A stretch of 64,000 bases of DNA from the NCBI GenBank assembly GCA_963827275.1, contig CAWHAA010000002.1, positions 276,566-340,565 on the forward strand, in the 5' to 3' direction. Below, piece after piece: positions 8,194 through 64,000 of the stretch. The translations under genes and the position numbers were made by a program. The stretch comes from an uncultured Spirochaetota bacterium. GTDB lineage: Bacteria > Spirochaetota > UBA4802 > UBA5550. The stretch's first letter is position 1, and each line of letters begins with the position of its first letter. Under the pieces are notes generated by a model. The model saw only the letters and a list, made by a program, of their open reading frames with translations. It had not been told where the DNA came from and did not search any database.

Positions 8194-9454
8194 AAACGGC
8201 CGGCTTATAGACCCGGCATCGAAGACGGACGGGGCGCTGGACCTCCTCGTGGAGGACGACCGGATAGCGGATATCGCGCCGAAGATCACGGCGCGGAGCG
8301 ATTACGGCGTCATCGACGCAGCGGGCTGTCTGGTGCTTCCGGGGCTCATAGACATGCATGTCCATTTCCGCGAGCCTGGCCGCGAAGACGTGGAGACGAT
8401 ATACGGCGGTTCGAAGGTGGCGGCCAAGAGCGGCTTCACCTCGGTGTGCACCATGCCGAACACCGACCCGGTCATCGACAACCAGGCGCTGGTGCGCTTC
8501 ATCAAGCTGGAGGCCGAGAAGGGGCCGATCAACGTCTTCCCCGCCGCCACCATAACGAAGGGGATGAAGGGGGAGGAGATCTCCGAAATGGGTGAGCTGA
8601 TCAGCGCCGGGGCGGTGGCCTTCACCGACGACGGGCTGCCCGTGATGAGCTCAATCCTGATGCGGCGCGCCCTCGAGTATTCGCGCATGTTCGGCGTTCC
8701 CATCATCACCCACTCCGAGGACCTCGGGCTGACCGACGACGGCATCATGAACGAAGGAAAAAACTCGACGCTCCTGGGCCTGAAGGGCATCCCCTCCGAG
8801 GCGGAAGAGGTGATGATCGCGCGCGACGTGATCCTCACCCGCCTGTCGGGCGGCAGGCTCCATGTCGCCCATGTCTCGTCCGGGGGATCGGTCGAGATCA
8901 TCAGGCGCGCCAAGAGCGACGGGATAACGGTGACCTGCGAAACGGCGCCCCATTATTTCTCCCTCACCGATGACGCGGTCGCGGAGTACCTGTCGATGGC
9001 GAAGATGAAGCCGCCCCTCAGGACGGATGACGACCGCAAGGCGATCATCGAGGGGCTCCGGCGCGGCATCATCGACGTGATCGCGACCGACCACGCCCCC
9101 CATTCCATGAATGAAAAAATGCAGGAGCTCGAGTACGCGCCGTTCGGCATCATCGGGCTCGAGACCGCGGTGCCGCTCATCATAACGGTGCTGGTGCGGG
9201 AAAACGGCTTTTCATATATCGAGGCCTTTGAAAAGGTTACCGCGAACCCCGCCAGGATCCTGAAGATCGACCGGGGCGTACTGAAGCCCGGTAAAATCGC
9301 CGACATCACCATCATCGACCCCGAGCGGAAGGTCCAGGTCACCGAGGACTTCATACTTTCCAAATGCAAAAACACCCCCTTTCTCGGCAGGGAGCTGTAC
9401 GGGTCGGTGCAGCACACGCTGTGCAATGGCAACGTGGTCTATTCCCGCCGGTGA
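8177..9454 (+). CDS. pyrC: Dihydroorotase
   Basis: DMHVHFREPG, MPNT, KMKPPLR, IATDHAPH; follows pyrB. Confidence 0.95.
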   Translation: MKIVIKNGRLIDPASKTDGALDLLVEDDRIADIAPKITARSDYGVIDAAGCLVLPGLIDMHVHFREPGREDVETIYGGSKVAAKSGFTSVCTMPNTDPVIDNQALVRFIKLEAEKGPINVFPAATITKGMKGEEISEMGELISAGAVAFTDDGLPVMSSILMRRALEYSRMFGVPIITHSEDLGLTDDGIMNEGKNSTLLGLKGIPSEAEEVMIARDVILTRLSGGRLHVAHVSSGGSVEIIRRAKSDGITVTCETAPHYFSLTDDAVAEYLSMAKMKPPLRTDDDRKAIIEGLRRGIIDVIATDHAPHSMNEKMQELEYAPFGIIGLETAVPLIITVLVRENGFSYIEAFEKVTANPARILKIDRGVLKPGKIADITIIDPERKVQVTEDFILSKCKNTPFLGRELYGSVQHTLCNGNVVYSRR

Positions 9455-49055: not shown

Positions 49056-50535
49056 GTGTTACGCTCAATGAAAAATATAAAAAAGCATTCCGTTCTTCTT
49101 ACCATTGTTTTTTTTGTATTTATCTGTACCTCTTGTGAGGAGCAAAAGTCAATGTCCTCACTCCTGGGTATTACAGGTGCAAATAATGCAGAAAATGAAA
49201 GCACTAACTGACAATGGGAGCAATGATACAGGCACTGGTGCAATCACCGGGAGCCAGACCGTCATTTATACCGCTGTTACTGAAGATAATGTCGAGTTGA
49301 AACTTATGCGGTATCGTCCGTCTACTGACGTCCCATTTAATGAAAAGCGTCAGCCCGTTCTCCTGCTTGGCGGAATCTTCATGAACAATGACGAGTTCAC
49401 GCCTCATACCACGGAACTGATGAAGGAAAAATATTCAGAGATGAAGCTCCCTGACAACATGGCCGCCTGGGCCGTGGGTGATCCATATATCGCGAATGAC
49501 CATATGATGTATTACAGTCTTGGCTACTATCTCTGGAAAAAGGGCTTCGATCCCTGGTTCGGCAACTACCGGGGCACGGGACGGGGTGAAATGAAAAGCG
49601 GGAGCCCCACGGACATATCGACCCTGGACGTACCCGGCTGCCTCGATGTGCCGGCGTTTGTAAAAAAAGTCACGGCGGTCACGGGCCTCAAGCCGTTCAT
49701 CGGCGGCCACAGCACCGGCGCCCTTAACTGCTATGTGTACCTGCAGGGCGCATATCTGGATCCCGCCGAAGTGATAAAAGGGAGAACCTCGAAACCTAAA
49801 TATATTCCCCATGTGAGAGTAAACGCCGAGCTTGCAAAAGAGAGAAACAACAGCGTCAAGGGATACATCGGCATAGACCCCGCGGTCGCGCCGCCGCTTC
49901 CCGCGGAACTTGATGCGTACTGGGTATGGTGGCTGCTGGACGGGCCGATTACGCTCCCGATGGATGCCATGATGGAGGCGCTGGAAGTTAAATCCGGGTA
50001 CACCGGAATGGAGTTCAGCGAAATTTGTGATTATCTGTTCAATGGCCTTGACAACCTGGCCATCCAGTACCCGGACTCGGTTTTTCAATATCTCCAGTTC
50101 TTCAAGACAGGAAGCGTGGACCCCTTCGTCCTTGATTATTTCATCAGATACGCGGTTTCAAACGGCTACCTGAGGATGATCGCCCAGTATGCTGACTGGG
50201 GTGTTAATCTGGTAATGAGGGAAGGATATAACAACGGCCCGGAAAATGCCGGTTCTAACGTCAGGCCAAAAGAGAGAACAGACGGCGACGGTTTCTACTA
50301 CTATGAGGACCATATGAGCAATATAACGGCGCCCATGATCTGCCTGCTGTCCGAAGCAAACGGACTGGTGGCGACCGAGCTCGTAACCAGGTACCTGATT
50401 GACTTGAAGACTCCGCACAGCCTGGACTATGTTTACGAGGTTCCCGGTACCGCCCATGCCGATCTGCCGATCGGGTACGCTGCGCCGCGCTTGATGTTCC
50501 CCGCGATGAGCAACTGGCTTGACCAGGTAAAATAA
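49056..50535 (+). CDS. Lipoprotein alpha/beta hydrolase, +1 frameshift near 49209
   Basis: GGGGAGG RBS, signal ...VFICTSC, nucleophile elbow GHSTG, C-terminal GTAHAD. Confidence 0.75.
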
Positions 50536-50556: not shown

Positions 50557-50593
50557 AAAAAAAAGCCCCTGATATAATCAGGGGCTTTTCTGC
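50557..50593. repeat. 37-bp direct repeat copy 1 (terminator hairpin / putative att core)
   Basis: AAAAAAAAGCCCCTGATATAATCAGGGGCTTTTCTGC identical to 60943-60979. Confidence 0.95.
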
Positions 50594-50690: not shown

Positions 50691-52709
50691 TCATAGTGCC
50701 CCTCCAAGAAAGCCGGTATCACCGGAACTGCCGGTCAGTACGCCGTTTGACAGTCCCCCGGCGCCGCCGGCGCCATGCGCCAGCTGAGTAGCGGATAGTA
50801 TGGCTCCCGATGACCAGCCATGTTTATATATCGCAAAAGAAGGGCCACCGGCGCCGCCGCCGCCAGGGCCACCGGCGCCGCCTTTTCCTCCATTACCACC
50901 ATTGCCGCCGGCACCGACTTCATCAGTAGCATTGTCGCCGCCGTTACCAGCGTTGCCGCCGCTGCCGCCGTTGCCGCCGTTACCGCCATTGCCGCCGCTG
51001 CCGCCATTGCCGCTTATGATTATACACTTAGCAACAGTGACGGTCGATTCGATCAGGAGGACTCCGAATGAAGCGCCGCCGCCGCCGCCGCAGATGCCGC
51101 CATTGCCGCCGCTGCCGCCGCCACCGCCGCCGCCGCCACCGTTGCCTTCACCTGCAAGATAATAGAATTCAGCTGCCCAGAATTGGCCGCCGCCGCCGCC
51201 ACCGCCGCCGCCACCGTTGCCCGGATTGCCTTTTCCTCCATTAGCTCCTATAGAAGAGATCCAAAGATTACCGGTTATGGCACCTGATGATCCGCCTGAC
51301 CCATTGGAGCCGGGAGATCCGTCCGTTCCATTGCTTCCGTGAAACCCATCGGTACCGGGGTTTATTGTCAACCCGCCGGCACCTCCCGGAGTACCATTGA
51401 TTCCCGGACTGCCATCACCGCCATCCATTGAGTCCCCCAATAAACACCATCCCCCAAAACCTCCATTACCGCCGTTTCTTCCAGCAGCGGAAGTTCCGCC
51501 ATCTCCTCCGTAAACATTAGCATCGGCAAGTGGGCCGATATCAGCTATCCCGCTGCCGCCCGTACTCCCGTTGCCTCCCGGCGCTCCTTCCGAACCGGTT
51601 GATCCATCGTGGCCCGGCGCGCCGTTCCCGGCCGTAATCCTGCAGTCCCTCAGCGTTACGGTGCTGTTAATAAGGCGCACGCCGTAGGAGCCGCCGCCGT
51701 AATTTGCGGCGTTCGAGCTGGCGATGGAAAAGCCGTCGATGATGCAATCGCCGACGCCGCTGCCGTCAAGGGCGATAGTGCCGCCCTGTATCTTGACCTG
51801 GTACGACGCCGTGTCGCGCTCCCAGGTCCCGTGAAGAAACCCGCCGTACATGCTCACCCCGCTCGCCAGGGACACGCTTTCAGCATAGTCCCCGCCGCTC
51901 ACGTACACGTCAGAGCCGGATGCCAGGGCCGCGGTCACTGCGGCCTGGATCGTTTTTTTGGGCGCGGCCCGGTCGGTGCCGTCATTGGCGTCGTCGCCGC
52001 TGACCGCGACATATATGCCGGCACCGGCCTCTTCCATGACAAAGATATACACGCGGTCCGGGAGGCTGTTTCCGGAGCCGTCATCCACCTGAAGATCGTA
52101 CGCGATCGTGCACACTTCCGACGGGGCGGTAAAGCTGGGGCTGACGCCCGTGAGCGTGCCCGTGCCGATCCTCGGCCCGTGTATCTGGGTCCAGGTGCAG
52201 GCGAGGGGATCGTTTTCGGGATCGCTGCTGCCGCTCCCGTCCAGGGTTATCGTGGCGTTGATGCTCACCTCCTGGTCGGTCCCGGCGTCGGCCGCTGGCC
52301 CGTTATTTTCGGATACGTATACGGTCGCCAGGTCGGCAATCGTGCGTGACCCGTCATTCACGGTGAGCCTGACTTCATACGTCCCTTCCGCGTCAAAGGT
52401 AAGCGTGGTCACGGCCGCGGCAGGATCGGCACATGAGGCAGTGCTCCCCGCGGGCTGATGCACCACTTCCCATAAATAGGTGAGGGCGTCCCCGTCGGGA
52501 TCGTAGCTCGCGGACCCGTCGAGACCGGCGCTTCCGGCGGCGCCGCCGTACAGGTTCGCGTTCTGGTCGGCGCCGGCGTCGGCAACCGGCGCGCGGTTGG
52601 TGGATTTCAGTATCAGTCCCTGCCTGCTGTTTTCATCGTCGCATGCCGCAACGATACCGCATGCGGTGAGTAGTGCGATACAGGCGAGATGTGTGCAGAG
52701 CTTCTTCAT
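50691..52709 (-). CDS. Polyglycine-rich surface lipoprotein C (2x PKD, DUF1565/beta-helix-like, PGRS-like)
   Basis: IVAAC lipobox, PVADAG...LDGS.S.DP.GD.L.Y.W PKD motifs, YV...GDDANDGT...PKKTIQAA, Gly-rich C-half. Confidence 0.82.
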
Positions 52710-52723
52710 GTCGTTCTCCTCTG

Positions 52724-54726
52724 TCAGTCGCTTGCCCCGGGGTACAGGTCGGCTTCGCCGGGATCGCCTGCGCCGCCCCCCGATCCGCCCCCGGCGCCGC
52801 CGCTTCCTCCGGCGCCGCACGTCAGGGTATTTCCGTTCAGGTATATTATTGAAAGCAATCCGTATTTATATATCGCGAACGATGGGCCGCCCGCGCCGCC
52901 GCCGCCGTCGCCCCCTGCGCCGCCGTTCCCGCCCGTGCCGCCGTCTCCCGCCGGGTCCTGCTCGTCATTGTTTCTGTCGCCGCCGTTCCCGCCCGCGCCG
53001 CCGAAGCCGCCGTAACCGCCGTTCCCGCCCGCGCCGCCGTTCCCGCCGCTGCCGCTGGTAATGACGCAATTCTCTACCGCAACGCTTGATTCGCTCAGGA
53101 AGAGGCCGAAGGACCCGCCGCCGCCCTGGCCGCCCCCGCCGCCGGTTCCCCCCGCGCCTCCCGCGCCGCCGCCCCCCCCGCCGTTGCCTTTATAAAAAAC
53201 GCCGTCTATTCCCCAGGTGCCGCTTCCGCCGCCGCCCCCGCCGCCGTTGCCGGGGATGCCGTCCGTTCCATCGACCCCGGAAGATGATACCCAGAGGCTG
53301 TTTTTTACTATACCGGACGAACCGCCCGCGCCGTCGGCGCCGTCAGCGCCGTTCGATCCGTTGCCGCCGTCATGGCCCGGGTGAACGCCCATTGCGCCGC
53401 CGCTGCCGCCCGGGGTCCCTATCCGCCCTTCGCCGCCCGGCTGCCCCGCGTACACTTCGCCGAATCCGCCGGTCCCGCCCCAGCCGCCGCTTCTTCCGAT
53501 ATCAGATGCGCCCCCGGCCCCACCGACGCCGATCGTCACCGGGTCCTCGGAGTACCTGTCGCTGCTCCCCCATCCGCCGGCGGACCCGGCGGTGCCGTTC
53601 GCGGCGCGCGCTGCGACGTCCGTTCCATCGATTCCACCGGCGCCGTTTCCCGCGGTTATGATGCAGTCTTTCAGCGTAACGCTGCTGTATTTCAGGTGCA
53701 CGCCGCAGGAGCTTTCTCCCGGTATTATGGCGTTCGTGCTGGTGATGGTAAGGCCGTCAATCACGACTTCGCCGACGCCGTTTCCGTCAAGGGCGATGGT
53801 GCCTCCCTGTATAGACGTCTGATATGATGCCCTGTCGCGCTCCCAGGTCCCGTGCAGAAAGCCGCCGTATATGCTCACCCGGTTCGCCAGAGCCACGCTT
53901 TCGGCATAGTCCCCGTCGCTCACGTACAGGTCAAAGCCTGACGCCCGGGCCGCGGTCACCGCCGCCTGGATGGTTTTTTTGGGTGCGGACCGGTCGGTGC
54001 CCTCGTTGGCATCGTCGCCAAGCAGGGATGAGACATATATGCCGGCCCCGGTCTTTTCCATGACATAGATATACACCCGGTCGGGCAGGCTGTTGCCCCC
54101 GCCGTCGTTTACCTGCAGGTCGAAGACGAGCGTGCAGACTTCGGACGGGGCGGTAAAGGTCGGGGCGGCGCCGGAGAGCGTGCCCGTGCCGATGGCCGGC
54201 CCGGTTATCTGGGTCCAGGTGTAGGTGAGGGCGCTGTTTTCGGGATCGGCGCTGCCGCTCCCGTCAAGGGCCACGAGGTCGCCACGGCCCGCCTCCAGGT
54301 CGGGTCCCGCGTCAGCGGTCGGTCCCTGGTTGTCGGCAACATGCACGGTCACCAGGTCGGACGCCGCGCGCAGGCCGTAACTCACGGTAAGTTTTATTTC
54401 ATACGTTCCGATTGCGTCAAAGGTGAACAGGGTCGTAACCGCGGCCGGGTCGGCAAAAGAGACCGTGCTTCCCGCGGGCTGATATACCACTTCCCATGAA
54501 TAGGCGAGGGCGTCCCCGTCAGGATTATAGCTCCCGGTCCCGTCGAGATACGAACTTCCGCTGCTCCCGGAGGTCAGATACGCGGCCTGATCGGCCCCGG
54601 CGTCGGCGACGGGGCACGTTTGAACATATCAATTAAAAATCCGGTCTTTTTGTTTTCACCGCATGCGGAAAGAATGGCACAGGCGGTGATCGCGGCGATA
54701 ATGGAAATGGTTGTTCTCTGCTTCAT
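52724..54726 (-). CDS. Polyglycine-rich surface lipoprotein B, -1 frameshift near 54612
   Basis: ILSAC lipobox; adding one base at KRAP restores PVADAG; same architecture as paralogs. Confidence 0.8.
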
Positions 54727-54742
54727 CGCGTCATTTCCCGCT

Positions 54743-56755
54743 TCAGTTGCTGTCCCCATACTCCCCATCCTTGCCGGGGTTCCCCGCTGATGCCCCTCCC
54801 GTTCCTCCCGTCCCGGGGATTACCCTGGTGACGGTTATTATCACCGATGACGATACGCTGCTTTTGTATATCGCGAAGGAAGGGCCGCCCGCGCCGCCGC
54901 CGCCGCTGCCCCCGTTCTTGCCATAGCCTCCCGCGCCGCCGTTACCCCCGGCGCCAATCTCATCCGTTCCGTAGGTGGCGCCGGTGCCGCCACCGCCGCC
55001 TGCCGCTCCCGCGCCGCCGCCGCCTCCGGAACCGCCGTTGCCGCCGTTGCCGCTCGTGATATCGCACTCGGTGACGTAGACGAAAGAACCGATCAGGAAA
55101 AGGCCGAGAGACGCGCCGCCGCCGGTTCCGCCGACGCCGCCAACGCCGCCCCCGCCGCCCCCACCGCCGCTGCCGCCGCCGTTGCCGGTGCCGTCAGAAG
55201 AAAACGCGGTGTCAACGACATCCTGGCCGCTGCCGCCCCCGCCGCCCCCGCCGCCGTTGCCGGCATCGCCGTCCGCTCCATCGACTCCGGAGGATGACAC
55301 CCAGAGGTTGTTTACAACAGAGCCCGAGGAACCGCCCGCTCCGTTTGCGCCGATGCTCGCGCCGTCAAGCCCGTTTGCGCCATTGCTCCCCGGCTCGCCC
55401 GTATAGCACCACACTGAATCACATACGCCTCCCAAGCCACCCGCAGACCCGACAAGTCCCACACCGCCATCATCGCCGTCATCACTGCTGTATCCTCCGT
55501 TGCCTCCCTTGCCGCCCGTCCTTGGCACCTGGGTCGTGTAGAGAGCGCCGATGTTGCCGCCTTCTCCGCCGGCATACCCCAAGCCGTTTCTATGATGATC
55601 TTTAGACCCGTCCTGGCCGTCTGTTCCTCTGTCACCGGCACGGCCGTTCGCTCCGTTGGCACCTTCCTGGCCCGGTGCCCCGTTACCGGACGCAATAATG
55701 CAGCCTTTGATCTCCGCGCTGCTGTTGATCAGGCGCACTCCGTATGAGCCTGTTCCTGCCATGGTTGCGTTCGCGCTGAAGATGCTGAGCCCGTCAAGGA
55801 CGACGCCGTGTACGCCGTTACCGTCAACCGCAATGGTGCCGCCCCGTATTCTGCTCTCAAAGGAGGCCGTATTGCGCACCCATGTGCCGGGATCAAAGCC
55901 GCCGTAGATGCCAACCCCGCTCGCCAGGGTCACGCTTTCGTCATACTCGCCCGCGCTCACGTACACGTCGCAGCCCAGCTCCAGGCCCGCGATGACCGCG
56001 GCCTGGACATGACGTTTGGGCAGAGATCGGTCAGTCCCCTCGTTGGCGTCGTTACCGGTTGTCGCGACAAAGATGCCGGCGCCTGGCTTTATACTGACAT
56101 ATATATACACGCGGTCCGGCAGGCTGTTTCCGGAGCCGTCATCCACCTGAAGATCGTACGCGATCGTGCACACTTCAGACGGGGCGGTAAAGCTGGGGTT
56201 GACGCCCGTGAGCGTGCCCGTGCCGATCCTCGGCCCGTGTATCTGGGTCCAGGTATAGGTGAGGGGGTCGCCTTCGGGATCGGTGCTGCCGCTCCCGTCC
56301 AGCATCACGATGTCGCCGGAGCCCACCTCCTGCCCGGCTCCCGCTTCCGCCATGGGCCCCTGGTTGATTGAGACATTGATGGTCACCATGTCCGACGCCT
56401 TGTGCGAGCCGTCATTCACGGTGAGCATGATTTCGTAGGTCCCGACCGTGTCAAAGGTGAACAGGGTCGTGACCGCGGAAGGGTCGGCAAATGAGGCGGC
56501 GCTTCCCGCGGGTTGATATACCATTTCCCATGTATAGGCAAGGTCCCCTCCGTCGGGGTCCGAGCTCCCCGACCCGTTGAGATCGACGCTGCCGGCGTAC
56601 AGGTACACGTTCTGGTCGTCGCCGGCATCGGCGACCGGCGGCCGGGTCAGAGACCCCACCATCAGTCCATGCCGGTCGCTTTCATAATCGCAAACGGTAA
56701 TGATACTGCACGCCATGATTGCCGCGAACATAGCGAAGTTGTTACGATGTTTCAT
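54743..56755 (-). CDS. Polyglycine-rich surface lipoprotein A
   Basis: IITVC lipobox-like site, 2x PKD, DUF1565-like motif, Gly-rich C-half. Confidence 0.8.
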   Translation of the reverse strand: MKHRNNFAMFAAIMACSIITVCDYESDRHGLMVGSLTRPPVADAGDDQNVYLYAGSVDLNGSGSSDPDGGDLAYTWEMVYQPAGSAASFADPSAVTTLFTFDTVGTYEIMLTVNDGSHKASDMVTINVSINQGPMAEAGAGQEVGSGDIVMLDGSGSTDPEGDPLTYTWTQIHGPRIGTGTLTGVNPSFTAPSEVCTIAYDLQVDDGSGNSLPDRVYIYVSIKPGAGIFVATTGNDANEGTDRSLPKRHVQAAVIAGLELGCDVYVSAGEYDESVTLASGVGIYGGFDPGTWVRNTASFESRIRGGTIAVDGNGVHGVVLDGLSIFSANATMAGTGSYGVRLINSSAEIKGCIIASGNGAPGQEGANGANGRAGDRGTDGQDGSKDHHRNGLGYAGGEGGNIGALYTTQVPRTGGKGGNGGYSSDDGDDGGVGLVGSAGGLGGVCDSVWCYTGEPGSNGANGLDGASIGANGAGGSSGSVVNNLWVSSSGVDGADGDAGNGGGGGGGGSGQDVVDTAFSSDGTGNGGGSGGGGGGGGVGGVGGTGGGASLGLFLIGSFVYVTECDITSGNGGNGGSGGGGGAGAAGGGGGTGATYGTDEIGAGGNGGAGGYGKNGGSGGGGAGGPSFAIYKSSVSSSVIITVTRVIPGTGGTGGASAGNPGKDGEYGDSN

Positions 56756-56778: not shown

Positions 56779-57666
56779 CTACCTTTCCTGAATATCCTTT
56801 TCCGCTTCTTTCTGTCCGGTAATTTTCGGTTTCTGGGCGTCTTTTGCCGGCGCAGCCTGCTTCTGGAGACTGTTGTCCGGCGCCTGCTGTTCCGTTTTTT
56901 CTTTATCCGGATTTTCCTGCTTCATGGTTTCCTTTTGCGTGGACTGTTGTTTTTTAATCTCCTTTTCCGGAAGCAGCATGAGGTGCCTTTGCAGATTCTG
57001 ATCGCTTTCCTGTTTGACCCTGAATAAAATTCCCACGGACAGATAGCAGTTGAGTGAATTCATGTAATCCAGGTTGTCCTGGGGCGCGGCCCATTCGTAT
57101 GTGAGGCCGCATTCGAAAAAGAAAGACATCAATCTGTTAAAATTGTAGTTCAATCCAAGAACGACGCCCGGAACAAAAAACCGGGGGAAAAAGATATTGC
57201 TGTTCATGCTTGAAAGATTGTTGGGATAATAGAAGGCGGATATGCTGAACCCGGCCCATGCGCGGAATACATTGTTCCGGAAGAACGCAAAGCCGAATGT
57301 ATTTTTAAGGCTCAGTCGAAAGGCATGGCCCTGAGACATGTCGGTCTTGTAATTATATTCCGCCCAGATTATATCAGGCGCTTTCGGATATCTGAATTCA
57401 TCAAATCCCAGCTGCAGCCTGTAGTTGAACAGGTAATCGTCCCCCATGCAGGTGTCGAACACTACACCCGCGCCGATTAAATAATTTGTGCCTTTGAAAT
57501 AGTAATCGATGTAAACGGGCGGCGGTGAGTAAAAATAATATTTTTTTACTCTGGATTCCCCGATGCCGCCGCTGAAATACGCGCCGATACCATGAGCGGA
57601 AAGCGGCGTGGAAAAACTGGTCAGAGCGAGGCAGGTGAGCGCGATTAATAACAGCCTGGTCTTCAA
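56779..57666 (-). CDS. Small outer-membrane beta-barrel protein with Q/K/E-rich tail
   Basis: AAGGAG RBS plus TTG start, signal peptide (LSA), aromatic amphipathic strands ending SVGILF. Confidence 0.7.
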   Translation of the reverse strand: MKTRLLLIALTCLALTSFSTPLSAHGIGAYFSGGIGESRVKKYYFYSPPPVYIDYYFKGTNYLIGAGVVFDTCMGDDYLFNYRLQLGFDEFRYPKAPDIIWAEYNYKTDMSQGHAFRLSLKNTFGFAFFRNNVFRAWAGFSISAFYYPNNLSSMNSNIFFPRFFVPGVVLGLNYNFNRLMSFFFECGLTYEWAAPQDNLDYMNSLNCYLSVGILFRVKQESDQNLQRHLMLLPEKEIKKQQSTQKETMKQENPDKEKTEQQAPDNSLQKQAAPAKDAQKPKITGQKEAEKDIQER

Positions 57667-57937: not shown

Positions 57938-57975
57938 GGGAATGAACTGTGCGTCAAGGGGAATGAACTGTGCGT
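57938..57975 (-). promoter_or_regulatory. LytTR-type operator: 17-bp direct repeat with 21-bp period
   Basis: Minus strand ACGCACAGTTCATTCCC twice; core ACAGTTCAT-N12-ACAGTTCAT fits [TA][AC][CA]GTTN[AG][TG]. Confidence 0.85.
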
Positions 57976-57979
57976 GATA

Positions 57980-60838
57980 TTAAATTTTTTTTCTCAGGCT
58001 CTCGAGATATGCCGGGCCAACCGGGAGCTCCGTGTAAACATTGTCGCGGAGGCGTACCCGGTAGCGTCCTGAACGCACGTGGGAGATGCTGTGGACGTAA
58101 TTGATGTTGATGATATGGCTTTTATGGATCCTGAGGAACATGTCCGGCGGGAACCGCTCGATGATCTCCTTCATCATCGCGGGCACCTCGACGTCGCCGG
58201 CGGCGGTGTGTATCACGCTGTTCTTCGAATGCGACGTGATGCGGATGATGTCGCTGAACTTGAAGGAATACGCCCTGTTCCAGCCGCGGATGGTGATGCC
58301 TTCGGCGGTCGATCTCCGTATGTTCCTGAGCTTCAGCATCGTGCCCACTCGCGCGAGGAGCTCCCGTATCCTGAAGGGCTTCACGATGTAATCGTTCGCC
58401 CCGGCATCGAAGGCGGCGTTGATGTCGGCCATCATGTTCTTTGCGGTGAGCATTATCACCGGGAGCTCCTCCGGGGAGCGGCTGGCGCGTATCCTTTTAC
58501 ACACGTCGTACCCTGACATGGCCGGCATCATGATGTCGAGGAGCACCAGGTCGATGGCGTTGTCCCGATCGATGATGTCGAGGGCGCGTATTCCGTCGCT
58601 CGCGGTTTTCACGACACAGCGTTTTGATTCGAAATAGTTCTGTATCACCCGTATGCAGACCGGGTCGTCGTCGACGACGAGAATCACCGGGTTGCCGTCG
58701 AGGGCGACGTCGTACGTCCCGGCCCCCGCCTGCGCTTCGCCCGCCTGCGGCGTGTCGTCCATGCCCCCGATGATGACCGGCTCCGGAACGTCGGGCGCGG
58801 GGCCATTTGAAACGGGCAGGGTGAAGGTGAACACGGAGCCGCCGCCCGCTCCCGGCGCGACAGTAATGGCGCCGTTGTGCAGCTCCACGATCTGCTTCAC
58901 TATGGTGAGCCCCAGGCCCGTGCCCGGATATGCGCGCGTGTCGCCGCCGTCCGCCTGCCGGTACGGCTCGAATATCTTTTCCCTGAATTCGTCCGGGACG
59001 CCGATGCCCGTGTCCGACACGTTGACCTCGATCATCTCTCCTGGCATCGCGTTACAGCCGTTGTCCGGCCGCTGGAGTACCCGCGCGGACAGCTCTATTG
59101 TCCCCCTGTTCGTGAATTTGATCGCGTTGCCGACGAGGTTGCACAGCACCTGCCGTATCCGGTCTTCGTCCGCGTGCGCCGCGGGAGTGCCCGGCGCGAT
59201 GGTGTTTATGATCTTCAGCGACTTTCCCCCGACGAGCGGCAGTGAAAGCTTCACGACCATTTCGCTCAGCGAGTGCAGATCAACGGGCCGCAGGTTCAGG
59301 CTCAGGCCCTCGTCCTGTATCTTCGCCATGTCCAGCAGGTCGTTGACCATGTTCGCCAGACGGTGACCGCTCGCGGCGATGAGGGAGAGGTTTTCGGCCA
59401 CCTTCGGGGTGAGGCCGCCCGCGGCTCCTTCAAGCATGGATTCCGACAGGCCGATCATGCCATGAAGGGGCGTGCGAAGCTCGTGAGAGGTGCTGGCCAG
59501 GAACTGGTCCTTGAGCCGGTCCATTTTCATGAGGGTTATGTTTTTCTCCGCGAGGTCCTCGGACAGCTCCTCCACCGTTTTGAGCGCCCTGGAATACCTC
59601 TGTGATATGATCATGGTAATCACGATACAGTGTATGACCACTCCATACTGGGTAACATTGGTGGTGTCAATCATCCACGACACGTAGAGCAGGTCATTGA
59701 TGCCCCCTATTAACAGCGGGGTAAATCCTGCAAGAAAAATTATCGCATCTTTTCTCCTGTGCACTATGGCTCTGATCAGGACAACTACACTGTAACAAAT
59801 CAAGATGAACATTATGATGAAATAAAATTTCATTATTTGCTCTGCGGTCCTGAAACCGACGGGGATAAGGACGATAAAGAATACTGCTGTTATGATAGTT
59901 ATAAGCTTAAGCAAAAATGGTGAAAAATCATAGGGGAACATCGACCTGATGGTCGTCATGTACATTGAGAAGGCCAGGATCACCGTCAGATAATTGATTA
60001 TGAGGGGATTCCGGGGATATGAAATGCAGCCGGACAGGATTGGGTAATGGTGGTTAAACGTATTTATCGCTATGGCAAGGCAGAATAATCCAAAATAGAG
60101 CGATGAGGCGTCCTGCCTCCTGAAAAAATAGAACAGGATGTTATAAATGGAAGCGAACATCAGCAGGCCGAAAACGATCATTTCTGCCGTATAGTATTGA
60201 AATTTTTTCTGTTCGAGAATTTCTTTATCGTCCAGCAGGATTGAGCTGTCAATGCCCCCCGAATCATAGTCATGGTTAAATACCTGGATGATAATCTCAT
60301 TCATGCCCTTGTTGAGGACGAAGGATGAATATCTTTTATTGTGAATGAAGATGTAATTGTCACGGAATTTCGATGTCCCGCCCACCTTTCCCATTTCATC
60401 CATCAGCGTATTATTGATCCAGAGCGTATACGCTGAATATATGCGGTGAATGGTCAGGGTTTTCGGCCTGGCGTCGGGACCGGCTATGATTGTTAATCGG
60501 TAGGTGGCGCGGCCCTTTCCGGGCAGGATCACGCCATTGACCGGGCGCCCTTCCCACGACCCGGGCACGCGTATAAATCCGCAGCCATTTTTGTCGCCCT
60601 GTGTTGAAAAATCAGACGGGCCCGGAAGGCGGTCCCAGCAGAATTCCCAATCGCCGTCAAGGCGCAGAGACCCGTCCCTTTCGAGGTTCCAGCCCCTGAG
60701 GTCAAGAACGCCTTTCACGGCGACAGGCTTTTTTGTCTTCATGGAGCCGCTGTCACACGAGGACAATGCTGGAAATATTAAAAAGAAAAGAATGGCCGGA
60801 AGCGAAACGATTTTGTTTATCGGGAGGCGCAATCTCAT
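57980..60838 (-). CDS. Hybrid sensor kinase: sugar-binding-like/7TM-DISM, HisKA, HATPase, REC, LytTR
   Basis: LDGDWEF/VPGSW/ATYRL, TM helices, SHELRTPL, NLVGNAIKFT, GTGLGL, VVDD/LLDIMMP/KPF, FLRIHKSHIININYV...LPVG. Confidence 0.9.
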   Translation of the reverse strand: MRLRLPINKIVSLPAILFFLIFPALSSCDSGSMKTKKPVAVKGVLDLRGWNLERDGSLRLDGDWEFCWDRLPGPSDFSTQGDKNGCGFIRVPGSWEGRPVNGVILPGKGRATYRLTIIAGPDARPKTLTIHRIYSAYTLWINNTLMDEMGKVGGTSKFRDNYIFIHNKRYSSFVLNKGMNEIIIQVFNHDYDSGGIDSSILLDDKEILEQKKFQYYTAEMIVFGLLMFASIYNILFYFFRRQDASSLYFGLFCLAIAINTFNHHYPILSGCISYPRNPLIINYLTVILAFSMYMTTIRSMFPYDFSPFLLKLITIITAVFFIVLIPVGFRTAEQIMKFYFIIMFILICYSVVVLIRAIVHRRKDAIIFLAGFTPLLIGGINDLLYVSWMIDTTNVTQYGVVIHCIVITMIISQRYSRALKTVEELSEDLAEKNITLMKMDRLKDQFLASTSHELRTPLHGMIGLSESMLEGAAGGLTPKVAENLSLIAASGHRLANMVNDLLDMAKIQDEGLSLNLRPVDLHSLSEMVVKLSLPLVGGKSLKIINTIAPGTPAAHADEDRIRQVLCNLVGNAIKFTNRGTIELSARVLQRPDNGCNAMPGEMIEVNVSDTGIGVPDEFREKIFEPYRQADGGDTRAYPGTGLGLTIVKQIVELHNGAITVAPGAGGGSVFTFTLPVSNGPAPDVPEPVIIGGMDDTPQAGEAQAGAGTYDVALDGNPVILVVDDDPVCIRVIQNYFESKRCVVKTASDGIRALDIIDRDNAIDLVLLDIMMPAMSGYDVCKRIRASRSPEELPVIMLTAKNMMADINAAFDAGANDYIVKPFRIRELLARVGTMLKLRNIRRSTAEGITIRGWNRAYSFKFSDIIRITSHSKNSVIHTAAGDVEVPAMMKEIIERFPPDMFLRIHKSHIININYVHSISHVRSGRYRVRLRDNVYTELPVGPAYLESLRKKI

Positions 60839-60942
60839 ATGCTGATCAGAATTTCTATATTTCCTGTTGTCAATACATTTCGTTAAAAGTGCGTTCCCGC
60901 TGCTTGTACCTGATTTTTTCAAGATTGTCGGCAAATTCATCA

Positions 60943-60979
60943 AAAAAAAAGCCCCTGATATAATCAGGGGCTTTTCTGC
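60943..60979. repeat. 37-bp direct repeat copy 2 (tRNA terminator)
   Basis: Identical to 50557-50593. Confidence 0.95.
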
Positions 60980-61022
60980 GCGCCCGGCAGGAGTCGAACC
61001 TGCGACCTACGGATTCGTAGTC
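60979..61022 (-). pseudogene. tRNA-Arg(ACG) 3' half only (att-site remnant)
   Basis: GACTACGAATCCGTAGGTCGCAGGTTCGACTCCTGCCGGGCGCG: anticodon loop, T-arm, acceptor 3' strand; no D-arm or 5' acceptor strand upstream. Confidence 0.88.
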
Positions 61023-61328
61023 GATGAATAGCAAGAGGCTTATCATTAGTGGATATTCGTTGCGATATATTATTTTATGTTGCTATGAATATCATTAAAA
61101 AACATACATATTAAACGAAAAATTAATTAAAAAAGGTTCTATTATTGGCGTATGTTGCTATTTGATTTTTTATGTGTTTTTGATTGGTCAATATTTGGTC
61201 AAATGATTTTGGGCATATTACAGGCAAGGATAAAAATATTCTGATTTGCGGGTTATTTATTAGTAAACCCTCTGTAATTTTTTATAGGATATACTCAAAA
61301 TATGAATATTAATTAAAAGGCGGTTTAT

Positions 61329-61763
61329 ATGGGATATGAATTAAAATCACTTTCTTCAGAAAAACGTTGTAAAAAATGCATTAAAGATGGAGACAATACG
61401 ATTAATTGTACTTATTGTCAGGTTGCATTTTTTACGTTCCATGTGCTCGATTGGCGGCCATTATTACTCTTGGCACAGCTGTATGGGTGGCAACCATTCG
61501 GAATTCCGAATCACGTGGGAAATAAAGTTAATGGTTATTGCGGTAATGATTGGGAGATTGTTGAAAGAGAAGATGCCTCTAATTTATCTGATGCTCTGGA
61601 AAAAGCAGTTAATGATCTCCCAGAAAGCAAAACGGTTATTCAACAAGAAAATAATGCAACTTCAAGAGAGGGGTTATTAAAGTATTTTTCTGGAATAGAA
61701 ATGAGGAATATGATAGTGAAGTTTATTGATTTTTGTCGACTCGATGGATTTATTATTTATTAG
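61329..61763 (+). CDS. AT-rich hypothetical protein
   Basis: ORF in low-GC block, CKKC and CTYC pairs near the N-terminus. Confidence 0.6.
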   Translation: MGYELKSLSSEKRCKKCIKDGDNTINCTYCQVAFFTFHVLDWRPLLLLAQLYGWQPFGIPNHVGNKVNGYCGNDWEIVEREDASNLSDALEKAVNDLPESKTVIQQENNATSREGLLKYFSGIEMRNMIVKFIDFCRLDGFIIY

Positions 61764-61808
61764 ATGAGATACGATTATTTATTTACATTTAATACTCAGG
61801 GAAATACA

Positions 61809-63070
61809 CCGCACAATTCCGCCACGCTGGGCAACCGCATACTCAAGCAGGACGGCGAGGCCGGCGTCTGCCTCGTCTGCCACAACGGCAATGTGGCGAC
61901 CGGTTCCAAGGACATCAACTACGCGCTCGACAATTCGGCGTATGTCCATCCGGGTCAAGACTACCAGCGGTCGCCACAAGCCCCAGCGCATGGCCGACGG
62001 CTACATCCGTGAGGACCAGGAGGACCTCGCCAACCGGCACGCCGAGTGCGAGGACTGCCACAACCCCCATGCGGTGTCACCCGGCGTCTCGCCCAACGTG
62101 AAAAGCGGTACGCCGACGACCAATCTCGCCGCGAACGTGCTTAGGGGCACCTGGGGCGTGGAGCCGAACAACTACCGCACGGGCGGCCTGCCGGCCTGGA
62201 CGGTGGCAGCGCAATCCGGCGGGTACACCGAGATCAACAACATCCGGCCCGGGGTCGATTACCAGTACCAGCTCTGCCTCAAGTGCCATTCCTCCTACGC
62301 CTTCGATCTGAGCCCGCCGATGTCGCCCTACAACAATCCGGCTTTGGGCATCGGTCCGGCCGGCAGCTACAATAGCGACCAGGCCAAGGAATTCAACCCC
62401 AACAACGTCTCCTTCCACCCGGTGGTCACCACGGGCAAGAATAACTTTTACAGCGAGGCGATAGGATACGACTACAGTTCTTCGCTGATCGACGGCATGA
62501 CGCCCAACAGCGTGATGGGCTGCTCCGACTGCCACTCGGACAGCCAGAATCCCTCCGGCCTCAAGGGGCCGCACGGCGCGGATTACTGGCCGATCATCTG
62601 GGGGCCTTATACAAAAAATACAGGTATGACAGGCACCCAGAACGATCTGTGCTTCAAGTGCCATGACTGGACAGTCTATGCGGAAGGCGATGCCATTGCA
62701 GCGGCCAACAAAACCGGTTTCCGGGCAGAAACCGGCTCTGGCGGGAATGTTAAAATAAAAAACATGCACATACGTCATGTTGAGGTACGCAATATGCCCT
62801 GCCTCGCCTGTCATGCGGCCGTTCCGCATGGCATGCCGCAACGCGCTTTGCTGGTCTGACGGCCGCGGTGCGTAGCAAGACGCCCGAGCCCTACAATGCG
62901 CAAAGCCAGGTTCCCATCTGCGGTACGGCTCCGGCCTGTTACAAATACGCTTGTGTTGATTCTACCGATTACGGCATCAATTCGAATGTCACCAACGTTA
63001 AGACTATCGTCAGCGGCAACTGGAAGAGAACCGACTGCCATAACGGCTCCGGCATCGGCTCTTGCGCGAG
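61809..63070 (+). CDS. Multiheme cytochrome c, 5'-truncated and frameshifted (near 61952, 62858)
   Basis: CLVCH, CEDCH, CLKCH, CSDCH, CFKCH, CLACH; 3' end uncertain. Confidence 0.8.
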
Positions 63071-63082
63071 GACTGCACTACC

Positions 63083-64000
63083 CATGGTCAGGGGTGGCGG
63101 CGTTGGCTGGCCTCGGCCCGACTGGGGTTGGCGCTGCTCGCGCTGCTGGCACTGGCGGTAGTAGCCGGCGGCACGCTGCCCCAGTTGGGGCGGCTGTCCT
63201 CTGCGGAACTGAACACCTGGCAAACTTCCTGGCCGCTGTTCGCGCAGAGCGCTGCAATGGCTGGGCCTGTCCGGGGTTTACGCTTCGTGGTGGTTCGCCG
63301 TCCTGTGCCTGCTGCTGGTGGTGAACATGACGGCAGCCATGCTGGTGCATGGCTTGCGCATCTTCGCCTGGCTGCGAGGTGAAGCGGAACCCAGTCACCG
63401 CATGGCCGGCGCGGGACCCGCTCCATCCGCGCTCGTCCGGCAGATTGACGCGCAGCAGGGTTCCCTGCTACACCGTGTCGGACTGCTCGGCGTGCCGCTG
63501 CTGCACCTCGGGGTGATCATCCTCATCGCCGGGGCGGCGCTGAACGCTTCCGGCCGCTTTGCCGCCCATCTGGAACTGAGCGAGGGCGAGATCTTCGCCG
63601 GCCAGCCGGACAAGCTGATCGTCGAATCCGAGGGGGATCGCAGCAACCATGCGCCGGCCTTCCGCCTGCGCCTCGACCGGTTGCACGTGGCCATTGGCGA
63701 AGGCAAGCATCTGGCCGAATTGCAGGCAAAGCTCACGGTGCGCGACAATGGGGTCATTTATCATGCCGAAGTGGAGGTCAATCACCCCCTGATGCCGTCG
63801 GCCCTTATTCGGTGTACCTCGACAAGACCTTGGGCCAGACGGCGATTTTCGACCGGCTGCTGACCGACGGGCGGAAATTCCGGTTGCTGATCAATTTCCC
63901 CGTTTCCATCGCGGCCTGGGAAACCGCCGCGCCCTTGCAGCGCGGTGAGATGAGTCGAGCTCGACGGCGTGCCCATTTTTTACCGCATGGCGCTTACACC
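63083..64000 (+). CDS. Cytochrome c biogenesis ResB/Ccs1-like protein, frameshifted, runs off window
   Basis: LAS.RL.LALL...GTLPQ, LGL..VYASWWF, LLHLGVIILIAG, VNHP across frames; start uncertain. Confidence 0.7.

Follow-up and report, generated by a model that had tools for sequence, protein, structure and literature searches.

A predicted polyglycine-II brush module with variable tip loops in a three-gene lipoprotein array of an uncultured Spirochaetota bacterium

In a 64,000-nucleotide stretch of the genome of an uncultured Spirochaetota bacterium (the window; positions 276,566 to 340,565 of contig CAWHAA010000002.1, assembly GCA_963827275.1), three tandem genes encode paralogous proteins, here called brush lipoproteins, with 59-62% overall identity. 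All three begin with a hydrophobic signal that ends in Cys, followed by two PKD domains recognized by Pfam and a C-terminal module of ~440 aa for which Pfam and NCBIfam scans gave no match. In this module a short β-helix is predicted to carry a bundle of Gly-rich polyglycine-II (PGII) helices ending in five variable loops. We consider it probable that the cassette supplies lipid-anchored binding proteins for the cell surface that differ in specificity, and that they are made from a single operon under LytTR control that also encodes a helper β-barrel. We infer that the brush lipoproteins are surface exposed, that they bind, and that they are regulated; a role as receptors or adhesins would agree with a preliminary description of this DNA.

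All three genes are on the minus strand. Gene 1 (54743-56755, 670 aa) has the signal with its Cys, two PKD domains, and the β-helix/PGII module. Gene 2 spans 52724-54726 and gene 3 (672 aa) 50691-52709, the module modeled here being positions 50694-52022 of the latter. The preliminary description had quoted nine loops along with conserved anchors, and all nine loops, as well as the anchors, were found in the translations.

The gene 3 module was modeled with AlphaFold2 on a 114-sequence alignment. The model has a predicted local distance difference test score (pLDDT) of 96.7 and a predicted template modeling score (pTM) of 0.87. With 416 of the 443 module residues at a pLDDT of at least 90, the Gly regions are predicted to be ordered rather than disordered; the Gly segments were assigned neither helix nor strand. 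Comparison with VIA-align identified a right-handed pectin-lyase-type β-helix, matching Pel9A with a Z-score of 15.8 and an rmsd (root-mean-square deviation) of 2.6 over 175 aligned residues. The other best fold matches of the module were BT_1002, an alginate lyase, and a pectin methylesterase (Z 15-16). The 175 aligned residues are scattered across residues 1-443, so that the Gly blocks are inserted into turns of a single short β-helix. The Gly scaffold had been placed directly on PKD stalks. Each protein does have two PKD domains, but the β-helix (~175 aligned residues) lies between and carries the scaffold.

On the minus strand of gene 3, the cap and first β-helix rungs (module residues 1-130) are encoded at 51633-52022. 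They are followed by a long Gly insertion (residues 131-317; 51072-51632) with eight putative PGII helices and tip loops L1-L4, a second Gly insertion (residues 337-395; 50838-51014) with two putative PGII helices and tip loop L5, and a last β-rung with a position-specific YKxG loop (50778-50837). A CxIxxGxG motif had been described ahead of the Gly blocks; it precedes two of the three, the third following a rung without Cys. Six of the Gly segments are 21-28 residues long; 78-100% of their triplets keep Gly in the every-third-residue register, and their lengths are nearly constant among 18 paralogs from the genus. Four short Gly segments sit between the first and second long ones. Counting helices along the sequence, rather than reading them from the model coordinates, suggests an out-and-back path with a six-helix stalk, a ten-helix head, and five distal loops, where three variable loops had been claimed. 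In gene 1 of genome G007 (L024:11500-13389) most of the second insert, with helices 9-10 and loop 5, is missing, so an eight-helix head may be tolerated.

Folded alone, module residues 126-397 reached a pLDDT of 96.3. Against 48,161 chains, the Gly insert gave 22 matches with Z of at least 2 and none with Z of at least 5. The best was the springtail antifreeze protein 2PNE (Z 4.4, rmsd 1.5 over 54 residues), then a second springtail antifreeze protein, 7JJV (Z 3.4, rmsd 1.5 over 54-55 residues), the Pam3 fiber (7YPX; Z 3.3, 118 residues aligned), and the Bxb1 tail tip (9D93; Z 3.1, 128 aligned). These top four of the 22 chains are all Gly-rich bundles, though Z-scores of 3.1-4.4 are weak. Sequence matches in the Protein Data Bank (PDB) were limited to proteins of collagen-type composition and to weak β-helix matches, and 8ZXL/9IUS is collagen.

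Cys residues in the loops of 144 homologous modules independently point to a shared face. The summed number of Cys over L1-L5 was even in 137 of the 144, while shuffling loops between proteins gave a permutation mean of 77 even modules and a maximum of 95. L1 and L5 are ~200 residues apart, yet their Cys gains and losses coincide: both loops had odd counts in 94 modules and even counts in 30, with 20 discordant (odds ratio 78). In the 18 modules with an odd L1 and an even L5, L4 was the sole remaining odd loop in 13. Cys in the first proximal turn (T1) and in the middle of helix 8 (H8) were concordant in 139 of 144, a pairing to be expected if the short helices fill only the far half of the bundle. 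For a test on independent pairs we used a tree built from the β-helix alone. Of 8 such pairs, L1-L5 gave 6.2 against 0.1, with a median p of 0.03, and a control pair on the same tree was null. The five tip loops thus appear to share one face, most strongly for L1-L5, with L2 and L3 placed by counting and by weaker pairing. Both helix counting and Cys pairing in homologs put the variable segments at one end of the module rather than scattered along it.

The division into a constant frame and variable tips is also found among the 18 paralogs. The five tip loops vary in length and have mean identities of 0.14-0.25, compared to 0.49-0.77 for the six long Gly helices, which bears out the earlier account of lipoprotein paralogs with a conserved Gly scaffold and hypervariable loops. 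Between array genes the β-helix is 54% identical and the loops 15%, whereas in pairs from the wider family of the module the values are 31% and 23%. As array loops are less alike despite more closely related β-helices, the loop divergence is specific to the arrays. The array loops are also longer, richer in Tyr and Trp (9% versus 3% in the wide family), and more acidic, with 19% Asp and Glu and 3% Lys and Arg.

The heads are exchanged as units. Gene 1 of genome G010 is 63-87% identical in DNA to its G004 counterpart over the stalk and β-helix and 89-96% identical over the long insert. Compared to G007, the same G010 gene is 70-92% identical before the long insert and 44-68% within it. By these comparisons the head moves as a unit between genes and across two species, the long Gly insertion being what is swapped. 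In approximately unbiased (AU) tests, two of four cross-placements were rejected (p 0.002 and 0.004). No second copy of the module was found elsewhere in the genome, and a genome scan for the Gly pattern confirmed none of 605 stretches. A mechanism like that of a diversity-generating retroelement, or one using silent cassettes, would therefore lack a template.

The preliminary description had compared the proteins to gp38 adhesins of T-even phages, and the likeness is closer than claimed. In S16 gp38 (PDB 6F45; PMC6851490), a five-ring β-helix has two turns extended into 2+8 PGII helices with five distal loops. Like gp38, the brush module is predicted to have β-helix turns drawn out into ten PGII helices rich in Gly, with five loops at the distal end that are hypervariable. 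Unlike gp38, it is cell-encoded in a chromosomal operon, has a lipoprotein-type signal and a PKD stalk, and lacks a Trp attachment domain and a phage tail context. Its inserts hold 8+2 helices, plus 2 short, instead of 2+8, and six of its helices are about three times longer than in gp38 and would form a stalk. No homology was detected: there was no Pfam or PHROG match to gp38 and the profiles of the brush family miss gp38, and hhalign gave a probability of 0.4% with a shallow gp38 alignment. In a viral fold search, the gp38-domain protein ranked no higher than 41, with a probability of 0.13. S16 gp38 and ALK were also absent among the 22 chains with Z of at least 2 and 2 weak Foldseek rows, which is uninformative either way. 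By analogy, then, the brush module may work like gp38 without being a member of its family. The Gly motifs of gp38 have been suggested as recombination points in module shuffling (PMC12032242).

Other phage brush domains share the Gly lattice with a variable distal tip. They include Pam3 gp24, a Gly lattice with a hypervariable tip on a TNF-like base (PMC9608196), the polyglycine-rich domains of Bxb1 (PMC13252515), and the LSH1 phage β-helix bearing brush fingers (PMC13243795). They are virion parts, unlike the cell-encoded brush lipoproteins. Among bacterial proteins, the mycobacterial PE_PGRS surface proteins are predicted PGII sandwiches with variable loops (PMC9436101), and one Atlas cluster near the module is automatically named PE-PGRS family protein (score 0.84). 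The brush lipoproteins have no PE domain or GRPLI linker and would form a compact bundle on a β-helix, in contrast to the flat PE_PGRS sail of up to 54 helices. The glycine-rich domain of ALK/LTK is a multilayer PGII bundle (bioRxiv 2023.11.25.568672), with a TNF-like base rather than a right-handed β-helix (PMC9608196). The β-helix cap is the same as in DUF1565 and the Leptospira LIC10774-LIC10365 family (NF047854), with partial matches in 4 of 7 relatives scanned. These NF047854 matches cover the cap region only, at 28-52 bits against a cut-off of 380, and the proteins of the window gave no match. LIC10774 binds host components (PMC8657130).

To determine how widespread the module is, we searched with phmmer and found 383 clusters at an E-value of at most 1e-30, the match running along the module in 144 of the best 150. 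The module occurs in Myxococcota, where it is commonest, Actinomycetota, and Planctomycetota. It is C-terminal in 133 of 143 wide-family proteins. The stalks are Ig, PKD, CARDB, Calx-β, or MopE domains in those of 57 scanned proteins with a Pfam match. Carriers verified to have the full module include Sorangium, Sandaracinus, other Myxococcota, Solirubrobacter, a Planctomycetota genome, and proteins with a type IX secretion system (T9SS) tail. Most carriers are annotated as hypothetical. Within the Spirochaetota, matches come from 9 of 401 genomes. In three belonging to another family, a single-copy lipoprotein has the consensus head over the stretch that was seen; one match consists of a β-helix without a Gly insert. 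One relative, P0006 (1330 aa), has two complete tandem modules of a distinct Cys-rich head subtype. PF26696 matches some relatives but not most of them. Searches of openly accessible main texts turned up no earlier description of the brush module.

Full arrays are encoded in 5 of the 16 other genomes of the genus, with two in G004. All seven arrays of the genus have three genes, inferred across contig gaps for the two in G004; in G016 the frame of gene 3 is broken. As the genomes are kin, the seven arrays are not seven independent cases. In G013 a remnant is left (L029, about 8500-8900) where a partial β-helix joins the C-terminal GGPS rung directly, the Gly insert being deleted and the frame broken; the LytTR repeat was not found at this locus. 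The constant count of three genes despite recombination asks for an explanation. The last β-rung varies with array position (YK[SN]G, [YF]KYG, and YK[HG]GW), and for 17 of 21 genes the nearest neighbor of this rung comes from the same position, compared to about 6 by chance. G008 is the exception.

Upstream of gene 1 is a gene (56779-57666, minus strand) for a small outer-membrane β-barrel whose loops are long and aromatic and whose C-terminal tail is charged. Pfam and NCBIfam scans of it gave no match; its look-alikes in the Atlas are OMP_b-brl / DUF2715 clusters (score 0.97). Among 61 genomes, close orthologs (56-66% identity, E < 1e-60) are found at exactly the seven array loci, the remaining matches being at most 42% identical over short stretches. 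Four distant paralogs are encoded elsewhere in the genome of the window (G000 C8:78316-79011, C4:505345-506022, C1:18448-19149, and C7:296683-297591), of which the C8 copy alone adjoins an obvious exported-protein gene. Every one of the 16 other genomes in the genus also encodes small barrels of this type.

A direct repeat, ACAGTTCAT-12 bp-ACAGTTCAT, lies ahead of the barrel gene (57942-57971, minus strand) and is kept upstream of the barrel in all seven loci, exactly as 9-12-9 in five and as a near-match in two. It fits the pattern tabulated for LytTR sites in PMC6193735, a 9-bp direct repeat with a 12-bp spacer about 10 bp before the -35 box. TTGA is found at +10 in three of the five loci with the exact repeat; the window locus has no TTGA there. 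The strict motif at 12-bp spacing has one site in the 4.1-Mb genome, and it also gives single matches at 3 of 11 other spacings. Next to the repeat is the gene (57980-60943, minus strand) for a hybrid sensor in which Pfam identifies 7TMR-DISM 7TM, HisKA, HATPase, receiver, and LytTR domains. An ortholog adjoins the array in five of seven loci, and this protein is the likely regulator of the cassette. G008 and G010 retain the repeat (L021:13779-13888 region) though the upstream flanks examined (L021, L023) hold no sensor ortholog; the sensor may operate from another site in these genomes, or it may be gone.

Turning to the remainder of the locus, the frame of gene 2 is broken near 54613 in this assembly and intact in other samples. 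Contigs from four of four runs, from four studies, hold one extra base there, so the frameshift is very likely an assembly error, and a true pseudogene was rejected on the same evidence. The signal Cys lies 19-23 residues ahead of the first PKD domain in all 17 genes read from their start and is also present in the first frame of gene 2. Genes 1 and 3 have in common, within their second PKD domains (about 56075-56250 and 52040-52195), a 90-base block with 98% DNA identity, including a 56-base exact match, which looks like recent gene conversion in the stalk. A 13-pair hairpin flanked by T runs on both sides (50561-50589, strand-neutral) is likely a two-way terminator at the end of the operon, the T run on the minus strand being directly visible. 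An α/β-hydrolase-like gene (49105-50535) converges on the array and shares the hairpin; the downstream gene varies from genome to genome. At the other end of the window, G+C falls to 31-44% in 61001-62000, and a multiheme cytochrome c gene (61891-62859) is followed by broken frames to the contig end. Positions 61000-64000 may be DNA of foreign origin or else a contig end of poor quality.

Several results weigh against our reading of the brush lipoproteins as lipid-anchored binding proteins with loops on one face. The residue preceding the signal Cys is varied and often non-canonical for a lipobox. The Z-scores of the Gly domain are under the tool's noise level of 7-8. On the β-helix tree the T1-H8 pairing had a p of 0.06, and the L3-L4 pairing was not significant (median p 0.5). 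As the loops of the window itself have few Cys, their co-location is transferred from homologs. The other two AU tests gave p 0.10, and the groups were picked after the identities were known. Among strains, in 40 of 126 rows, 14 of 37 codon differences were non-synonymous and 2 were in tip loops, with no sign of loop hypermutation. Relaxed constraint could be an alternative source of the loop divergence.

The loops might vary for escape, as exposed targets of, or decoys for, phages or predators on proteins with one fixed structural or adhesive job. The faster divergence of array loops than of loops across phyla would fit, as would the patchy cassette, with full arrays in only some genomes and a deletion remnant in one. 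Set against this are the length and Tyr/Trp enrichment of the array loops, as in binding sites, the head common to genes of two species at 89-96% DNA identity, and the few loop changes among strains, and we regard escape as unlikely. Heads could also bind like heads, or barrel loops, on neighboring cells in self/non-self recognition. Myxococcus TraA/TraB is such a combination of a polymorphic adhesin with an outer-membrane barrel. The dedicated barrel at all seven arrays and the prevalence of the wide family in Myxococcota are consistent with this, and the heads of gp38 attach to the loops of barrels in the outer membrane, OmpA among them (PMC12032242). However, strongly acidic loops disfavor like-with-like binding without cations, and lock-and-key co-evolution is not evident because the barrels stay 56-66% identical while heads swap; we regard self/non-self recognition as very unlikely.

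A polysaccharide-degrading enzyme, with the β-helix as lyase or hydrolase and the Gly domain accessory, would account for the best fold matches given above. Sensors of the 7TMR-DISM type, like the one next to the array, are associated with carbohydrate sensing. But the ~175 aligned residues span only the first half of the matched enzymes (40-240 of 400 in Pel9A), conserved polar residues are mainly at the N-terminal cap motif and insert junctions, and variation is concentrated in the tip loops; we find an enzyme highly improbable. Even more remote is an ice- or mineral-binding surface-active protein, working through a flat polyproline-II face like springtail antifreeze proteins. These proteins are the two best fold matches of the Gly insert, and the loops are acidic, but the alignment is limited to 54-55 residues and outward helix positions are unconserved (non-Gly identity 0.2-0.5). 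Ice or mineral binding would also leave the three heads and head swapping unexplained, and the runs examined that carry the sequence are from bioreactors, sediment, manure, and freshwater.

Under the preferred reading of the products as surface proteins that bind with differing specificity, two PKD domains plus a short β-helix would project each brush protein outward. Three turns of the β-helix would be lengthened into Gly-rich PGII helices, the six long ones (21-28 aa) forming a stalk and four short ones joining distally to give a ten-helix head. The Gly lattice would be a fixed frame presenting the five loops on one face, where the acidic Tyr/Trp-rich loops may be the binding site. Mutation would diversify the loops together with recombination exchanging whole inserts. 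The sensor-LytTR protein probably turns on the operon of the barrel and three brush genes. As ligands we would guess at polymers on the surface of other cells, or at their outer-membrane proteins. We further propose, as a rather unlikely possibility, that the three brush lipoproteins assemble in a fixed order through their position-specific last rungs, docked on or displayed by the barrel, with heads drawn from a cross-species pool. If so, the fixed-order trio would be a combinatorial and regulated organ of recognition, a cellular counterpart of a phage tail-tip adhesin, for recognizing other cells. It would also represent, in array form, a cross-phylum adhesin module that has no name so far, with heads recombining at Gly borders.

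The preliminary description mentioned neither the barrel gene nor the LytTR-type repeat, and it did not include the constant number of three genes or the breadth of the family. The triplet, barrel, and LytTR box make it tractable as one operon in a laboratory host, and the module offers a loop-display scaffold of natural origin in which head swapping is documented. Phage host-recognition tips are known to use PGII bundles with variable tips, and bacterial examples are PE_PGRS proteins and a few enzymes. The brush module brings the β-helix-plus-brush design to cell-encoded surface proteins of several phyla, raising the question of whether phages and cells share this design or arrived at it separately.

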